A stretch of DNA of 62,864 bases from a virus (taxonomy: Duplodnaviria; Caudoviricetes): positions 1-62,864 of the IMG/VR virus record IMGVR_UViG_3300032241_001240. One strand, written 5' to 3'. The translations under genes were made by a program, and so were the position numbers. The notes below the pieces were generated by a model that saw nothing but the letters and a program-made list of their open reading frames with translations, did not search any database and was not told the DNA's origin. Positions 3,186 through 39,464 of this stretch are shown here, piece after piece. Position 1 is the first letter of the stretch; each line of letters opens with the position of its first letter.

Positions 3186-3734
3186 TTATATTAGGCTATT
3201 TCGTCTGGCATCTTCTAATTGTTTAAATTCAATTGTATCGGAAGTTTTGATAAATTTGCTAGACTGAATCAACATATCAAGAATTTGTTGCGTAGCTGCA
3301 ATATAATTGTTGCTTATAAGTATTTGTTTATTTTCTAACCATATCCAATACCATCCTTTTTTCACTTCAAGATGTGTAGAATTGATTGATACCCAAGTTC
3401 CTTCTGCAGCAATTTGATATATATTACCGTTCATTATCAATGGACCTTGCGAATTATTTCTAGATCTCTCCATAAGATTTGCAATTTTCTCAGGGATAGT
3501 TAGTTTTGGTCCATTTTTGCCAAATTCTTTAATATACAACAATCCTTTAATGGTGTCTGACTTTTCGTGTAACGATTTTATCTCATCGATACTTAAAGTG
3601 TCTACCATTTTTACCAATTCAATGATGTGAGGTTTTTTGCTGGCCAATAATAATGTATCTGGCCCATACATTGATCTCACACTATCACCATTGCAGAACC
3701 CAGGTAAATGTGTTACTTGTTGAAGTATTGACAA
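3186..3734 (-). CDS. Hypothetical protein (true start may be ATG ~3670)
   Basis: ORF fills the gap between co-directional genes; no motif recognised. Confidence 0.55.
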   Translation of the reverse strand: MSILQQVTHLPGFCNGDSVRSMYGPDTLLLASKKPHIIELVKMVDTLSIDEIKSLHEKSDTIKGLLYIKEFGKNGPKLTIPEKIANLMERSRNNSQGPLIMNGNIYQIAAEGTWVSINSTHLEVKKGWYWIWLENKQILISNNYIAATQQILDMLIQSSKFIKTSDTIEFKQLEDARRNSLI

Positions 3735-4368
3735 TTCGATTTACAATATAACCAAGTGTTGCAAAATAATTAATCACAGCATTCATTTGTGTATTATATG
3801 GCGGAGACAATAATGGATTACTCATAATTTGCCCCTGCCAAGCCCCGTAATAATCCTGACTTGGATAATAAGCATATACATAAAATATACCAGAACCAGT
3901 AGAAGTTAGTGGAATATAAATTGGTCTCTGAGCTATAGAATTTGCATAACTAGCTGCCAACATAATTGTATTAACATCAACATAAATTACATAGTAATAT
4001 GTGGCTTGCATCAAAGGATCTGGCAATGTTTCTGTGCTGCTAACAGTGACAATATCTCCTGTATTAAACGGATGATTTGGTATTGTTAACATATTGCCGC
4101 TAACAGTCCATGTTAACGGTATGAAAGGAGTACTATATGTCATCAATGTATTATTCGATACCTGCACTTGATAAACACCTTGGCTAATTGCGCCGTAAAC
4201 CGCTTGTTGTAATTTATTAATTTCTCCATTTACAGCTTCATCTGACGGCAAACTATTGCGTACATCTATTGCATTAGTGAAACTTGACGAAGGTGCCGGC
4301 GACGGATTATAAGCGTAATTATAATAGAAGCTGGTCCAATAATTTGCATTGTTTAGCGAACAAGACAT
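3685..4368 (-). CDS. Putative virion structural protein
   Basis: Low-charge, N/S/T/Y-rich. IPNHPFNTGDIV...LPDPL...YYVIYVDVNTIMLA is a beta-module typical of large-phage tail/baseplate proteins. AAGGA SD. Confidence 0.7.
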   Translation of the reverse strand: MSCSLNNANYWTSFYYNYAYNPSPAPSSSFTNAIDVRNSLPSDEAVNGEINKLQQAVYGAISQGVYQVQVSNNTLMTYSTPFIPLTWTVSGNMLTIPNHPFNTGDIVTVSSTETLPDPLMQATYYYVIYVDVNTIMLAASYANSIAQRPIYIPLTSTGSGIFYVYAYYPSQDYYGAWQGQIMSNPLLSPPYNTQMNAVINYFATLGYIVNRIVNTSTSNTFTWVLQW

Positions 4369-4384
4369 GATTTTATATCCTTGA

Positions 4385-4750
4385 TCATAACTCTAACTCA
4401 CCCGATTTGACTGCTTTTTCGGCTTGTTTATCTGCAGTTTTTGCAATAGTCTCTGCTTCTTTTTCGGCTGATTTATCACTTAGGGTGTCGGGTATGCCGG
4501 TTTTTATTTTGATGTTTTTTGGGCCGCTGCGTTCTACAATATCAGCAAACATAGGACCTGATAATAACTTCATGAGATCGTCAGCAGTCACATCATGCCC
4601 TAACTTTCTCATGTAAGTTACTGCTCCATCTTCCCCTGACATCGGTGCCCAAGGTTTATTTTTACTGTGATATGTTATAACAAAATCCATAAGATTATTG
4701 TTCATATCATCAGTAATTTCACCTTCTTGTAGTAGTTCTCTAATTAACAC
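4385..4750 (-). CDS. Hypothetical, putative head-internal protein
   Basis: N-terminus MLIRELLQE resembles a capsid-targeting leader. Confidence 0.65.
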   Translation of the reverse strand: MLIRELLQEGEITDDMNNNLMDFVITYHSKNKPWAPMSGEDGAVTYMRKLGHDVTADDLMKLLSGPMFADIVERSGPKNIKIKTGIPDTLSDKSAEKEAETIAKTADKQAEKAVKSGELEL

Positions 4751-29103: not shown

Positions 29104-30156
29104 TCACTTTTGTTGCTGACGCTTACGAATCGCAGCAATGATCTCGTCTGGAGTCTGCATCTTTTTCTCAGAAGCAGGTGCAGACGAAGCCGTAGTATTA
29201 GGCTCTTCCCACGGTGGAGAATTATCTTCTTCAACTACTGCAGGCTTGGTAGGCAATCTATTTAGAATGCTGCTTGCAGTAACCTTTGGAGTAGAAACTG
29301 GTGTTGATACAGCAGTTGACGAGCTGTTATCGGAATCATTGTTAGCGTTATCTAAACGCATACCATTTGGTCGATAGAATTGACCCCATCGATCAACATC
29401 GTACAATTCCTCATCTACACTTGCTCTGAATAATTCCATAATAGCAGCTAAATGTGCATCATCAGGCTTCTTTGGTAAGAAACTTGATAAATTCCACAAA
29501 CCATGTTGGTTAATAGCAGTAATCTCAGCATCTGTTAAAGCACGCTCTTTCATTGCCCATTTGCTGCTAGCATAATTTGCATAGTTACCTTTTGAACTTT
29601 TGAGTAGATAAAAATCTCTACCTTTATCATAGTCAGTAGGACTGTGCTCGAGATCCTGGTCCATGAGAATAGACTTGACAATATCAAATACCGACGTATT
29701 TATGACAAATCGACGAATAGGATTCTCTGGTTCTTGATCATCCTTGTTAGGGTTTGACGTTACAAATCCTTGAAATAAATAGCTCTTCTTACGGTAATAC
29801 TTGCGAGCCATGTCTTCTAAGCTTTTGTCCTTCCACCAAGGACGAATTTCAGCTGTTATCGGACAAGTACCCGACTTCCACATATCGGTGCAAGGAACTT
29901 GAACTTCAACAGGCTTTGAAATTGGATCGCCTTTAACACCTGGGAACGGAAGCTTAATAATAAGTCGTTCTATCCAGAAAAAGTCATTTGATTCGTCGCC
30001 ATCTGGAAGGAATCGTAATGTTGCGCTTGATCCTTCAGGATTATTCCAGAATGGATAAATGGCATTATCGCCACCGAAGCCGCCGCTTTTTGCGCGGTCT
30101 TTATTAGCTTGTTGAGCCAATAGTTTTGCTTGTATTTCTTTAAGAGTTAGTGCCAT
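29104..30156 (-). CDS. Single-stranded DNA-binding protein (T4 gp32-like)
   Basis: LRFLPDGD, FFWIER, VPC..MW...CPI, YLFQGFV, YANYASSKW; precedes uvsX. Confidence 0.88.
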   Translation of the reverse strand: MALTLKEIQAKLLAQQANKDRAKSGGFGGDNAIYPFWNNPEGSSATLRFLPDGDESNDFFWIERLIIKLPFPGVKGDPISKPVEVQVPCTDMWKSGTCPITAEIRPWWKDKSLEDMARKYYRKKSYLFQGFVTSNPNKDDQEPENPIRRFVINTSVFDIVKSILMDQDLEHSPTDYDKGRDFYLLKSSKGNYANYASSKWAMKERALTDAEITAINQHGLWNLSSFLPKKPDDAHLAAIMELFRASVDEELYDVDRWGQFYRPNGMRLDNANNDSDNSSSTAVSTPVSTPKVTASSILNRLPTKPAVVEEDNSPPWEEPNTTASSAPASEKKMQTPDEIIAAIRKRQQQK

Positions 30157-32604: not shown

Positions 32605-34317
32605 TTAATTTATTATCACAGAGAACGGCAGAGGATCTCGATGTTCAGTTTCATTGTCATCGAACACATCTTTCATCAATTCTCCAACTTTATCATCCCA
32701 ATTAGTGACCATTTGCATCATACGTATACACAGGATTGTAGCCATAACACAGTCATCATTTTCGCCTTGTTTAGCCGAAAATCCATCGCCTTTGGATATG
32801 AAAAATTTCAATTGTTTGATTAACATTTTGCTTTTAATTTGCAATCTATTGCTTTCTACAAGACTCTTTAGTTTGCTACAAGCATTAGCTTTGCTGCGAC
32901 CATTCGTGTTCAAACCTTTACGATATCGCACTAATCCAGTTCTACGAGTTTCATTCAACAATTGACCCATAAAATTTTCTTCGCCTATATCATTTATCGT
33001 TTGTAGAGCAGCTTCTCCCCATGTATTGTTTTCAAAGGTAAAATAAATGTCTGGTTCACCTTTGAATCCAGATTTTTTACAATCGTCGTAAATCTTATTG
33101 ATGATAGTTTGCATTGTGCGTACCTGATTGGGGATACTGGTTTTACTACTGGTCCATTCTGCTATTTGTGACATATCTGGTAAACTCCAGACTTCGATAG
33201 CAGCAGGATCTTTCCCTACACCTGCACTCGGGTCTAGACTTACTAGATAAGTTCGATCTGTGGTTATGCGATCATACCAACGTATTTCGCCAGTTTTATA
33301 AAGAGGATCAGATCCTCGTAACCGTTGTAATGTAACCCCGCCTATAAGTGTACTTTCTTCACCGGCGAATTGACAGCAATATTCTCTTAGAAATCTCTCC
33401 TCTCCAATTTTAGCACGCTCAACATCTGCCCAAACTTCGTCGCGGCCTGGTACATCACTATAATGAGCAGAGAATCCTTTGAAGCCATTAACACCCACTC
33501 CATTCAGTATTTCATTACCGTGCTCATCAATGGTGTTTATGGCGCCAAACCATAATTCTGCAAACATATCTTCGTCACTTGCCGGAGTTGATGTTATGAT
33601 ACATTTACCACCTGTTGCCAATGTCGGTGCCATAGCCGTCCAAAATTCTCTTGCAACTCCTGGCCGAACGAACGCAAATTCGTCTAGATATAATAAACTA
33701 ATAGCCATACCTCGACCGCTATCTGGTGTAGTAGTTGTAGCAACTATGCGCGATCCGTTGTCAAATCTTATGCTTGTTACGTTATACTCTGTAACACCTG
33801 CACGTATATGATTTGGCATTTCTTCATATGCATATTTGATACGCATCATTATTTCGTTAGCTGCTTTGAATTTGTTTGCTGCTATTAACACTGTAACATC
33901 GTCGTGATACATAGCATACCATAACAAATAACCGGCCGCAGTCGTTGTATTATGACTTAAAATACCATTTGTATAATAACGATGATCGGGTGATTCCACC
34001 GAAACATCATACATGTTGTCATATAAATCACTGATTTTTAACGATTTTACTGATACTACACCAGAATCTGTTTGTATCAAACAACCAGGGGTTAGATCTT
34101 TAACAAAGATCTCATTATAATTTTCGTCAAATACAATATGATTGTCTGCACAAAAAAGGTGATACCCGTTGTCTAGCAACAATTCGTATACTTGATATTC
34201 TATGGTTTTTGATATTTCTGTACAAGGCTGCCAACCAGAGTCTGTTAATATATCCCAATCATCCAGGGATATTTGATCTATAAATTTTCGATCTACTGTT
34301 TCAGACATTGCATGCAT
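32605..34317 (-). CDS. terL: Split-intein C-fragment (~123 aa) fused to terminase large subunit C-extein
   Basis: Probable start ATG 34317 after AAAGGT (alternative 34362). ...CADNHIV...MYDVSV...YYTNGILSHN|TTTAAGYLLWY; LDEFAF (Walker B), ITSTP, LDPSAG, NDDCVMA. Confidence 0.92.
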   Translation of the reverse strand: MHAMSETVDRKFIDQISLDDWDILTDSGWQPCTEISKTIEYQVYELLLDNGYHLFCADNHIVFDENYNEIFVKDLTPGCLIQTDSGVVSVKSLKISDLYDNMYDVSVESPDHRYYTNGILSHNTTTAAGYLLWYAMYHDDVTVLIAANKFKAANEIMMRIKYAYEEMPNHIRAGVTEYNVTSIRFDNGSRIVATTTTPDSGRGMAISLLYLDEFAFVRPGVAREFWTAMAPTLATGGKCIITSTPASDEDMFAELWFGAINTIDEHGNEILNGVGVNGFKGFSAHYSDVPGRDEVWADVERAKIGEERFLREYCCQFAGEESTLIGGVTLQRLRGSDPLYKTGEIRWYDRITTDRTYLVSLDPSAGVGKDPAAIEVWSLPDMSQIAEWTSSKTSIPNQVRTMQTIINKIYDDCKKSGFKGEPDIYFTFENNTWGEAALQTINDIGEENFMGQLLNETRRTGLVRYRKGLNTNGRSKANACSKLKSLVESNRLQIKSKMLIKQLKFFISKGDGFSAKQGENDDCVMATILCIRMMQMVTNWDDKVGELMKDVFDDNETEHRDPLPFSVIIN

Positions 34318-34363
34318 TGTTCTATTACCTTTTTGGGTTTGATTTATATTACGATCAACCATA

Positions 34364-34789
34364 CTACCGTCGTCGGGCTGTACTGACTGTGTCTCTTCTT
34401 TTGTATTGACTGATATCTGGTAAGGTTGTTCCTGCTCGCATACAAGCAGCCCATTCGTAATAGGTCCCAATTGGGATATCATAAATTTCTCCTGTGGATT
34501 GTTGTTTAATACTAATTAAAGTATCATGTACAACACATTTCCCACTCTGCCTCGGAATCATAGCCAGCACGTTTCTGTATTCATCATAAGCGTGTACCAA
34601 ATCACGCTGAAACAGATATGCTTCAAAAGGTACTTTACCTTTTGTTGGATGCTGGATATACATAAAATGTTCCATAAACCATAAAGGGTCTTTGTGACAT
34701 TTGACTAGCTCTTGTAGCTGTTCTTTAGTCATCGGAACTTTTAATCCAGGCGGTTTTAATTTTTCAAAATCTGTTGTATTCTTTCCCAT
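34364..34789 (-). CDS. terL: Terminase large subunit N-extein fused to a short split-intein N-fragment
   Basis: gp17-like KCHKDPLWF...YIQHP...PRQSGK|CVVHDTLISIK...IPIGTYYE; Cys at 34537, stop 57 codons later, in a different frame from the C-part. Confidence 0.9.
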   Translation of the reverse strand: MGKNTTDFEKLKPPGLKVPMTKEQLQELVKCHKDPLWFMEHFMYIQHPTKGKVPFEAYLFQRDLVHAYDEYRNVLAMIPRQSGKCVVHDTLISIKQQSTGEIYDIPIGTYYEWAACMRAGTTLPDISQYKRRDTVSTARRR

Positions 34790-34796
34790 TTTCTCA

Positions 34797-35045
34797 TCAA
34801 TTCAAGGAGAACAACTCGTCTATCGATCTGTAAGATTTTACATAGTCTCCCGATATACTTATCAGTACTTCGTTTATAACTGCTTCTATATTAGTGTGCC
34901 AATGTTTTAAAAATTTATGAGTTCGATATAATTCCGGAATATGATCCTCAAAACCCCAGCAAAATTCTTGCAATAAACTGGGATGATCTGGGATGTAATA
35001 ATAAACTTTGAGCAATACAGGTTTGGTACTAAAAATCAACATCAC
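34797..35045 (-). CDS. usg: Usg-family protein
   Basis: YYIPDHPSLLQEFCW..ED..PE....KFL..W...IE pattern; AGGAGG SD before GTG 35045/ATG 35042. Confidence 0.8.
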   Translation of the reverse strand: MMLIFSTKPVLLKVYYYIPDHPSLLQEFCWGFEDHIPELYRTHKFLKHWHTNIEAVINEVLISISGDYVKSYRSIDELFSLN

Positions 35046-35090
35046 TATCCTCCTTTTGTGAAAATAACACCAATAGAGGCCGTGCATTCA

Positions 35091-37116: not shown

Positions 37117-37563
37117 TTATTTTTTCTTACGTTGAATGCCTTTTTTGACAAAGATCTGATCTTCTGTAAGAATCCTAAAAGATAATCCATTCTTTTTACA
37201 ATAAGACATCGCAGCCGCCCATTTAGCAGTATTCAATAATAATGCCGCTTTATCTCTCTTGCTTTTGGCATTTTCGGCAATAGCTTCTTTAGCAGGTTTT
37301 ACCTCTACTAATTCTGCTCGTTGTTTTCCAGATTTATCATTATATACTATTAAAAAATCTGGAATGTACCTGTGAATTTTCCCGTCCAATGGACTTCTAT
37401 ATGGTATTGCAATACTTTCACTAGCCCAATTAATGACATTTGGATGTTGATCTAATAATGTCATTACTCTAAGTTCCCACCCAGATCTAAAAACTATTTT
37501 AGAATTCCCTACAATTTTATGTGGGTTCTTTGGAATAAATTCGCCCTGATTATATTTGCTCAT
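37117..37563 (-). CDS. Head-completion nuclease (T4 gp4-like, TnsA-type)
   Basis: F.PKNP.K, FRSGWE, WASE.I.IPY, YIPDF, VEVKP, N.AKW.AA, F.ILTE. Confidence 0.9.
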   Translation of the reverse strand: MSKYNQGEFIPKNPHKIVGNSKIVFRSGWELRVMTLLDQHPNVINWASESIAIPYRSPLDGKIHRYIPDFLIVYNDKSGKQRAELVEVKPAKEAIAENAKSKRDKAALLLNTAKWAAAMSYCKKNGLSFRILTEDQIFVKKGIQRKKK

Positions 37564-38060: not shown

Positions 38061-39446
38061 TCATAAGCCAGCTGCGCACGAATTTATATACTGAGCTGCT
38101 TGATTACCAGCCGCTGAAACACAACCTGCTATGCATGTTGGAATTTGCGACAACGAACTAGACGTTGATGGTGTTTGACTACCAGACCCAGAGAATAATG
38201 AAGTCACTTGTTTTACACTGCCTGATGCAAACGATGATATCTGATTAACTCCGCTATTTAAATATGATGAAAATTGTGTTGGATTAGTCAAAGCTGCACC
38301 AAGACCTACAGACCCAAACGATACTATTTTACCGAGAACAGATGGGTTAAGCGCACCAAGTGCAGTGGTAGTACCAAGTAACGGAAGTGGATTAAAAGAC
38401 CCAAGTGCTGCAAGAGGATTAGACGCACCAGGAGCCAGTGATGCTTGTTGATTAATAAGAGTTTGAGCCGTTTGTGTAAATTGAGTAGGCGTAGGAATAT
38501 TACCACTTGGGTTTGATAAATTAGTAGTCAAATTAACAGGAGGTGTAGTGATATTTTGTGTAGCCGGAGAATTAAAGATTCTAGATTTTGCATCTGGATT
38601 TTTTATAACAGTTGAATTGGTAACACCATTGATGTAATCATCGGTATTATAGCCAAAATTTGGCATAAATCCAAGCGCATTATTTGGTGAGTTTGATCCA
38701 TTGTTAATTGGTTGGCCAAATGCAATATAATTGATAGCCTCATATTTAAATTGCACATTCACCTCTTCGGGATCGCTAGAAGAATAGTCAAATTGTTGCC
38801 AATCTATAGATGTAATTTTTGGATTCACATAACTCCATGCCGTAAATGTATTAGCAAACATTGCGTAAACTATGATATTAGTGAAAAAATTAGTATCATT
38901 GTTTACAATCGGTTGAAATCCCCATCCAGAATCCCAAGTCATGCTACTTGAATAAGGAGATTGCTCATAAGCCGCTGCTGGTGTAGAAGATTGATTAGAA
39001 AAACCAGCTTTTTGTCGACTATCAGCAAAATAATACGTAAAATAATCTACCCAGGTTGCTAATATACTATCGTCAACTGTATCGTGTAATCTAACAGAAG
39101 CTTCTCCGTATTCTATTTTCTTATAAACCAAAACTTTTTTATTATATTGGTTTAATTCTTCTGTTTGTAAATTTACCTTTGGTTTATCAACAGTTTTTAC
39201 TTTGAATGACATACCTCTACCACTAGGATCGGCGTAATTAGCCAATTGCGCGTTAGTCCCTATCATTTGCTGAGCAGACGGACCTAGAACGAATTGTACG
39301 TAAAATTCAAATTTAACTCGCGGAACTGCTTGCATAACATTTCCGGGAGAATTTACTCCAAATGCTCTAGTAGCAATCTGAGGAGATCGAAGACGTGTTA
39401 TGCCGCCTGCTGGCACAGTTGGATTGGTTGTAGTGGTACCGCTCAT
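38061..39446 (-). CDS. Tail-tube-related baseplate protein (gp54/gp48-like) with low-complexity C-terminus
   Basis: PRVKFEFYVQF, VKTVDKPK, LNQYN, HDTVD, FDYSS, F.YE (tube fold); probable start 39446. Confidence 0.72.
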   Translation of the reverse strand: MSGTTTTNPTVPAGGITRLRSPQIATRAFGVNSPGNVMQAVPRVKFEFYVQFVLGPSAQQMIGTNAQLANYADPSGRGMSFKVKTVDKPKVNLQTEELNQYNKKVLVYKKIEYGEASVRLHDTVDDSILATWVDYFTYYFADSRQKAGFSNQSSTPAAAYEQSPYSSSMTWDSGWGFQPIVNNDTNFFTNIIVYAMFANTFTAWSYVNPKITSIDWQQFDYSSSDPEEVNVQFKYEAINYIAFGQPINNGSNSPNNALGFMPNFGYNTDDYINGVTNSTVIKNPDAKSRIFNSPATQNITTPPVNLTTNLSNPSGNIPTPTQFTQTAQTLINQQASLAPGASNPLAALGSFNPLPLLGTTTALGALNPSVLGKIVSFGSVGLGAALTNPTQFSSYLNSGVNQISSFASGSVKQVTSLFSGSGSQTPSTSSSLSQIPTCIAGCVSAAGNQAAQYINSCAAGL

Positions 39447-39464
39447 ATATCTATTTATCAATTA

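Follow-up and report, generated by a model that had tools for sequence, protein, structure and literature searches.

The window analysed here is the whole of IMG/VR virus record IMGVR_UViG_3300032241_001240 (Duplodnaviria; Caudoviricetes), a linear viral contig of 62,864 bp that was estimated to be ~15 % complete. The named phages to which it is most closely related all belong to the jumbo phages (Atu_ph07, Phosso, the PA5oct group, Rak2-like phages and SCTP-2). The record contains one terminase match, and this gene, terL, is the only terminase large-subunit gene seen on the jumbo-phage fragment. It is very probably interrupted between the lysine and the threonine of its Walker A motif by a natural, atypically split class-1 intein, the two resulting precursors being joined by trans-splicing to rebuild TerL. 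The features of the locus are listed below, with the evidence for each in brackets.

34364..34789, minus strand: gene 1, TerL N-precursor of 141 amino acids (aa), composed of an 84-aa N-extein and a 57-aa N-terminal intein fragment, IntN (open reading frame (ORF) list, sequence)
34366-34364, minus strand: TAG stop codon of gene 1
34538..34789, minus strand: coding part of the N-extein, residues 1-84, ending with ...PRQSGK, the first half of Walker A
34367..34537, minus strand: IntN, 57 aa, with the Cys1 codon at 34537-34535 (alignment A2, ratio of non-synonymous to synonymous substitution rates (dN/dS), complex model)
34318..34363, minus strand: intergenic spacer of 46 nt (printed sequence)
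33949..34317, minus strand: C-terminal intein fragment, IntC, 123 aa, MHAMSETVDRKF...GILSHN (starts of homologues; homology to CatC, VidaL and gp41-1)
32605..33948, minus strand: C-extein, 447 aa plus stop, from Thr+1 (33948-33946) (Pfam, T4 gp17 alignment)
34318..34482, minus strand: upstream extension of the C frame, open from ATG 34482 and overlapping the end of gene 1 (related loci)

Gene 1 displayed a PHROG terminase large subunit match and read ...AMIPRQSGK/CVVHDTLISIKQQSTGEIYDIPIGTYYEW...KRRDTVSTARRR up to its stop (slashes mark junctions here and below). The whole IntN was CVVHDTLISIKQQSTGEIYDIPIGTYYEWAACMRAGTTLPDISQYKRRDTVSTARRR, followed by TAG, and was laid out as block A, an IPIG-YYEW helix and a conserved tail (...PDISQY) that leads into a variable, basic end. 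The second ORF was in the +1 frame with respect to gene 1 and displayed LFCADNH (block B), NMYDVSV (block F) and GILSHN, followed by TTTAAGYLLW and the body of a T4-type terminase. Pfam matches on this second-frame ORF were Terminase_6N (residues 180-379), Terminase_6C (415-586) and, weakly, Intein_splicing (143-178). The C precursor was 570 aa long (123-aa IntC and 447-aa C-extein), with block B His60 encoded at 34140-34138, block F Asp104, and the terminal His122-Asn123 pair, the Asn codon being at 33951-33949. Thr+1 completes Walker A (GK/TTT); the remainder of the ATPase domain follows, and then the nuclease domain. The break is located N-terminal to block B: IntN includes only block A and the helix, while blocks B, F and G belong to IntC. 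GC contents of 0.346 for the element, 0.393 for the exteins and 0.372 for the window were uninformative.

An earlier reading of the letters alone, hereafter the sequence-only reading, had described most of this. Its N gene ending with PRQSGK and a 57-aa IntN carrying only block A was borne out by the ORF list and the sequence, and so was a second gene in another frame encoding an acidic 123-aa IntC, all of whose motifs (CADNH, YDVSV, GILSHN and then TTTAAGY) were present. The net charge of this IntC was -15, and 23 out of 23 relatives were strongly acidic as well (-7 to -18). The basic tail attributed to IntN held for its last 12 residues, the only basic part; the whole fragment was near neutral (+2). 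No endonuclease was encoded between the halves, as had been stated; a 46-nt spacer separates them. The intein was also correctly described as atypically split, the break falling before block B, but its IntN is longer than the 15-37 aa of known natural examples.

The C frame was indeed open from ATG 34482, as the same reading had pointed out, but this is not where IntC begins. In an alignment of the window C protein with 22 homologues (A3, 23 rows), 20 rows started with M-x-x-(I/L/M/P)-S-x-x-(V/I)-x-RKF and two more started at most two residues away, while matches to residues 1-185 of the long ORF spanned only ~70 % of that stretch. The true start of IntC is therefore ATG 34317, and the two genes are therefore 46 nt apart, without overlap. 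A Shine-Dalgarno sequence, AAAGGT (34332-34327), precedes this ATG by 9 nt; an additional in-frame ATG is found in the spacer at 34362, one base past the stop of gene 1. The extension from 34482 to 34318 was judged non-coding in the C frame. Scanning the minus strand of the spacer for promoters and terminators revealed no site, counts being no higher than the shuffled expectation. Because no terminator-like site separates them on the coding strand, the two genes are probably co-transcribed.

Among solved inteins, IntC matched VidaL (6vgv, 1.6e-6), CatC (6dsl_B, 6.6e-6) and gp41-1 (6qaz, 2.2e-5), and a profile search returned the same set as the single-sequence search. IntC residues 16-123 aligned with CatC 12-112, including C(A/S)DNH and YYTNGI(L/V)SH, and residues 51-123 aligned with VidaL 71-142, VidaL being the best solved match to the C half of IntC. 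Cat, the consensus of AceL-TerL and GOS-TerL, is split after helix alpha1 at the S2 position, according to the accessible part of PMC13014065. The CatC alignment places the C side of the present break at the equivalent position, after helix alpha1.

The insertion was located by alignment with T4 gp17, the N-extein aligning up to K166 and the C-extein from T167 of SRQLGK/T (via the cis homologue P0075). Out of 80 related viral loci, 72 read GK/T or GK/S without insert (intein-less relatives continue straight from GK into TTTAAG), and five (L005-L008 and L046) displayed a short IntN followed by a stop. The placement inside Walker A given by the sequence-only reading thus stands. Joined, the exteins were 531 aa long, exactly as long as the intein-less protein of L009, with which they were collinear and shared 472 out of 531 residues (89 %). 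A 1,882-bp contig of run X1, the second one used from that run, joined position 33933 to 34634 with 111 other letters in between; the difference (700-111) is 589 nt, the exact length of the IntN coding part, stop, spacer and IntC coding part taken together (34537-33949). The same sample must therefore also contain a relative whose allele lacks the intein. Judged from these alignments, the insertion in TerL is precise and lies between the Walker A lysine and threonine. The remaining three loci (L018, L044 and L057) carried a different, contiguous intein starting with alanine at the same Lys/Thr point (GK/ALDIRTPIATPTGW... and GK/ALPLYTKIPTPNGW...), which suggests non-class-1 inteins competing for the same site.

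The N protein had 11 metagenomic homologues, ten of which were 131-143 aa long, 51-67 % identical and ended in the same way. These ten shared the sequence ...IPIGxYYEWAACMRxGxxPPDISxY, stopped within a few residues of each other and displayed IntNs of 47-59 aa. In an alignment of 11 N fragments (A2), Cys1 (C85 of gene 1), directly after GK, was invariant in all 11; P106, I107, G108, Y110, W113 and D125 were invariant too, and P124, I126 and Y129 nearly so. On the C side (A3), A57, D58, H60, D104, H122 and N123 were invariant while H112 and T124 (Thr+1) were nearly invariant. The dN/dS ratios, in comparisons where synonymous sites were near saturation, were 0.065 for IntN and 0.08 for IntC against L007, and 0.26 and 0.15 against L008. 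Tail codons 114-132 displayed 13.2 synonymous and 4.8 non-synonymous changes with respect to L007. The N frame is evidently read to its stop and is under purifying selection.

A complex model of gene 1 residues 75-141 with C-precursor residues 1-135 reached an ipSAE of 0.88 in three runs (best of three controls, 0.00). The mark used for this score is reached by 116 out of 157 solved complexes and by two out of 215 mismatched pairs; as similar complexes are already solved, passing it may reflect likeness and is no proof of binding. No partner pLDDT (predicted local distance difference test) value was below 77, and 78 % or more of the contacts were common to the runs. The confident interface was formed by gene 1 residues 82-118 with the IntC strand 14-24, block B (54-61), block F (100-105) and block G plus Thr+1 (114-124), and thus takes in both splice junctions. 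Contacts of IntN with IntC were confident only up to about position 34 of IntN. The halves are predicted to associate.

The proposed mechanism follows the established class-1 pathway; association in vivo and the splicing chemistry are extrapolated, as is the transcription of the locus. IntN, consisting of beta1, beta2 and helix alpha1, would dock into the acidic and nearly complete HINT domain of IntC. Cys1 would form a thioester, which the hydroxyl of Thr+1 would attack; Asn123 would then cyclise with the help of His122, and an O-to-N shift would leave a normal K84-T peptide bond. The product would be a 531-aa TerL with an intact PRQSGKTT P-loop. Because the Walker A lysine and threonine are encoded on separate polypeptides, packaging ATPase activity should require splicing. 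The break lies in a hypervariable linker after helix alpha1 (S2), a linker which in some relatives houses a free-standing gene for a Vsr-like homing endonuclease; the window is read as a descendant devoid of this endonuclease. Strands and helices are assigned here by alignment with solved inteins and from the complex model.

IntC alone was searched against 1.84 billion representatives and matched 1,112 cluster representatives with E<=1e-3, far above what chance would give; the number was 596 with a threshold of 1e-10 and 58 with one of 1e-30. In the top 150, the first residue of IntC fell within the first 25 residues of the protein in 117 cases, at residues 29-46 in ten and at residue 128 or later in 23. 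The classification set was composed of the best 120 word-index hits plus the window, of which 103 could be classified: 90 were split (by extein motif, 59 TerL-like, 30 SbcC/gp46-like and one DnaB-like) and 13 were cis forms. At 98 junctions the +1 residue was T in 91 cases, S in seven and never C. Cis forms (e.g. P0018, P0056 and P0075) displayed a variable, N/Q/S-rich linker of 25-35 aa exactly at the break point of the split forms. In a quick tree, which was poorly resolved (ten out of 92 inner branches starred), cis forms were scattered among split forms and no order of events emerged.

Several members of the family displayed further particularities. The same IntC family was found in front of SbcC/gp46-like ATPases (P0039, P0046, P0077, P0083 and others), reading SHN/TTIINALSYALY, and of a DnaB-like helicase (P0071), reading SHN/TLVLGNLAV; these IntCs were 53-59 % identical to that of the window and their site was again Walker A Lys/Thr. 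Some proteins of 343-351 aa (P0016, P0019, P0022 and others) displayed a second atypical break ~190 residues downstream, ...DREYN/CVSAHTIINV..., with an IntN of 36 aa. The motif concerned, RE../CEF, is intact and unoccupied in the window (REYCCQF); with its cysteine at +1, it may be the AceL-TerL and GOS-TerL site. Two loci encoded additional ORFs near the break. L046 harbored a 396-aa ORF between its IntN and IntC genes (3260-4450) with a match to DUF559, a Vsr-like nuclease (E 5e-7, above the Pfam cut-off). L007 harbored a 128-aa ORF (3308-3694) with PHROG endonuclease-family matches, possibly a remnant, which overlaps the end of its N gene. Together with the window (spacer of 46 nt) and Atu_ph07 (11 nt), L046 and L007 look like stages of endonuclease gain and loss, the nuclease having been lost from the window or never present in it.

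Several points weigh against a functional split intein. The usual threonine of the block B TxxH motif is replaced by Ala57 (ADNH); this is so throughout the family, where the alanine is invariant and aligns with CSDNH of CatC. In the complex model, confident contacts were missing from gene 1 residues 119-141, to which the conserved PDISQY belongs; a proposed beta-hairpin between this IntN tail and the N-terminus of IntC (RKFID) was thus neither recovered nor rejected. As the record covers ~15 % of the genome, a second intact terminase gene may lie elsewhere. The C frame of the window is open for 165 nt upstream of the start of IntC, so that a single +1 slip would give a cis precursor. Finally, the sequence of the locus was compared with a run, X1, that is possibly the source sample, and agreement between the two tests the assembly rather than the sample.

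This last comparison bears on the possibility that an indel error hides a contiguous cis mini-intein with a ~33-aa linker. One base gained or lost within 34482-34364 would fuse the two frames, such linkers exist in natural cis forms, which make up 13 out of the 103 classified hits, and in the weakly supported tree the cis form P0018 was among the nearest relatives of the window. However, a 19,871-bp contig obtained from run X1 by another assembler (word depth 27.8) covered 33900-34800 with no differences and no gaps. Runs X2 and X3 contained just short pieces ~90 % alike, or nothing. The identical N protein was recorded from two contigs, the stops of ten homologous N fragments differ in position by a few residues only, purifying selection extends to the end of the N frame, and in that frame the tail residues TVST of the window match VVST of L008/P0006. 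An indel is consequently a highly improbable explanation. A leaky or programmed +1 frameshift, for which AGA-AGA in ...YKRRD... is a candidate site, might likewise produce a cis precursor, alone or beside the split products. Tandem rare AGA codons promote +1 slips in Escherichia coli, and the C frame, which is the N frame +1, stays open where it overlaps the final 39 codons of gene 1. Against such slippage, the C frame opens just 15-33 nt before the IntC ATG in all four related split loci examined that have a C gene (L006, L007, L008 and L046; the available DNA of L005 has no C gene and this locus stands outside the comparison) and 48 nt before it in Atu_ph07. Spacers were moreover 11 nt in Atu_ph07 and 56 nt in L008 (both relative frame +2), 240 nt in L006 and L007 and 1107 nt in L046 (all frame 0), so that, with the window, relative frames 0, +1 and +2 all occur, and in SCTP-2 the pieces of the intein are ~170 kb apart. 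The IntC gene also has its own Shine-Dalgarno sequence and a family-typical start, and no slippery heptamer or stimulatory structure was identified. Because it is seen only in the window, the C frame open far upstream looks like chance, and frameshifting is very unlikely to account for the locus. The frameshift concern raised earlier is thereby largely set aside, and the split is evidently no artefact, given the conserved end of the N frame, the purifying selection, the recurrence of the break with varied spacers and frames and the agreement of a second assembly.

It is also conceivable that the element is decaying or inactive, TerL function being ensured by non-covalently associated halves or by a further terminase gene within the 85 % of the genome that was not sampled. 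The small part sampled, the missing homing endonuclease and the alanine of block B are in line with this. The nucleophiles and assisting residues are nevertheless invariant across diverged relatives, dN/dS was low in both halves, and a P-loop cut between lysine and threonine would be unlikely to function unligated. The cultured phages Atu_ph07 and SCTP-2, in addition, propagate with the same break, and tblastn with both halves found one place per record in Atu_ph07, although a very divergent copy could escape such a search. Inactivity is on these grounds quite improbable, and a natural split intein whose halves are joined by trans-splicing remains the preferred reading; the tests made all favoured this core of the sequence-only reading.

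Terminase inteins with an atypical split entered the literature in 2009-2015, as stated in the available parts of PMC2677866, PMC11766414 and PMC13014065. The characterised ones, AceL-TerL, GOS-TerL and their consensus Cat (PDB 6DSL), share with the window a T4-type TerL host from uncultured phages, a break between blocks A and B after alpha1 (S2) and a long, nearly complete IntC. IntC is 123 aa long in the window and 104 aa in Cat, and the +1 residue of AceL-TerL and GOS-TerL is a cysteine (both from the accessible text of PMC11766414), in contrast to Thr+1 here; their IntNs are 25-37 aa long, against 57 aa in the window and 47-59 aa in its homologues. Given Cys+1, AceL-TerL and GOS-TerL must sit elsewhere in TerL than at Walker A Lys/Thr. 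Their native C-exteins presumably start with CEFL, which would fit the RE../CEF motif ~190 residues downstream. As far as these comparisons go, the window element appears to differ from the characterised atypically split terminase inteins in its insertion site, its +1 residue and its longer IntN.

Other known elements resemble it in part. VidaL (PDB 6VGV) is also naturally and atypically split, but after beta2 (S1) and with a 16-aa IntN (PMC13014065, in part), whereas the window element is split after alpha1 with an IntN of 57 aa. The mycobacteriophage TerL1-a P-loop cis-intein is likewise inserted between the invariant lysine and a nucleophilic threonine, so that splicing builds the active site; according to the accessible portion of PMC5050341, elements of this type are contiguous, reside in terminase_1-type proteins and include some with reported active endonucleases, whereas the window element is split, endonuclease-free and located in a terminase_6 (T4-type) protein. 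The fractured 'Terminase' gene from GOS that Dassa et al. described in 2009 (PMC2677866, in part) has a Vsr-like endonuclease between its halves, a layout that recurs in L046, and the length given there nearly equals the 123 aa found here; the window differs from it in having only the 46-nt spacer and no endonuclease gene. If that gene sits at the same site, this type of element has been in print since 2009.

Two cultured phages with the same insertion (GK/...SHN/T, two genes, IntC ending with GILSHN) are Agrobacterium phage Atu_ph07 (MF403008) and Salicola phage SCTP-2 (MF360958). In their annotations, each piece is a terminase gene of its own and no intein is mentioned; the words intein and split are absent from the Atu_ph07 paper. 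Atu_ph07 differs from the window in displaying Ser1, a diverged 40-aa IntN, a 148-aa IntC and a cysteine at the block F Asp position. Its locus (L001, 2058-4249) reads GK/SVHKSTDITY... to SHN/TT, with no cysteine at either junction and a block F of MYCLSV; it could be a natural example of an atypically split intein that does not rely on cysteine, or of one whose chemistry resembles class 3. SCTP-2 differs from the window in the great distance between its pieces and in a further break at Walker B. Its TerL appears to be in at least three pieces (L002, 2474-2866; L003, 2492-3385): gene 534 is composed of the N-extein and IntN, and gene 267 displays the matching IntC first and a second short IntN last, at Walker B (...SISLLY/CLDGETTVKL...).

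In the literature covered, from which the supplement of Dassa et al. 2009 and the 2014 and 2015 papers are absent, no description of a split intein at the terminase Walker A was found. The sequence-only reading had gone further and called the element a distinct variant on account of its site and threonine nucleophile. This was overstated: P-loop Lys/Thr is a 'classic' intein insertion site, terminases included (Kelley 2016, PMC5050341, available in part), and the layout was found in hundreds of metagenomic clusters. The arrangement is real, of an already known kind and common in uncultured phages. A more ambitious interpretation, according to which these elements form a distinct, undescribed clade of atypically split inteins specialised on Walker A Lys/Thr and moved among at least three ATPase families of large phages, is possible but doubtful. 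Its hosts may be TerL, SbcC/gp46-like and DnaB-like proteins, with Thr or Ser at +1 throughout, and PPDISxY may be a selectively maintained extra segment of IntN outside the canonical fold. This segment might be an affinity clamp, or the relic docking site of an endonuclease-bearing linker. If such a clade exists, cultured members like Atu_ph07 make it testable, and semisynthesis tools compatible with Thr+1 or independent of cysteine would be possible.

The surroundings of terL were also inspected. Directly upstream is a 96-aa ORF (34797-35087, minus strand) with a match to Pfam Usg-like (PF06233, E 5e-12), an unusual neighbour for a terminase. Further genes on the minus strand encode a gp32-like single-strand DNA-binding protein (29104-30156; phrog_1192 at 3e-62), a TnsA-like or 'head closure' nuclease (37117-37563; PF08722 at 1e-23, phrog_218 at 8e-46) and a tail-tube-like protein (38061-39461). 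Neither a second copy of the IntC family nor any tRNA gene was found across the whole window.

For annotation, the two genes should carry one label, split terL. Protein chemists gain a further natural template, a split intein that combines Cys1 and Thr+1 with a long IntC. Natural atypically split inteins valued for semisynthesis have IntNs of 15-37 aa, as listed in the accessible part of PMC13014065, and the 57-aa IntN is less handy than such fragments; the complex model indicates that ~34 residues may suffice. The split state is stable and widespread, with 596 clusters at E<=1e-10. In phages of this kind, an essential motor may depend wholly on two gene products being ligated after translation, at a point within the ATP-binding loop.

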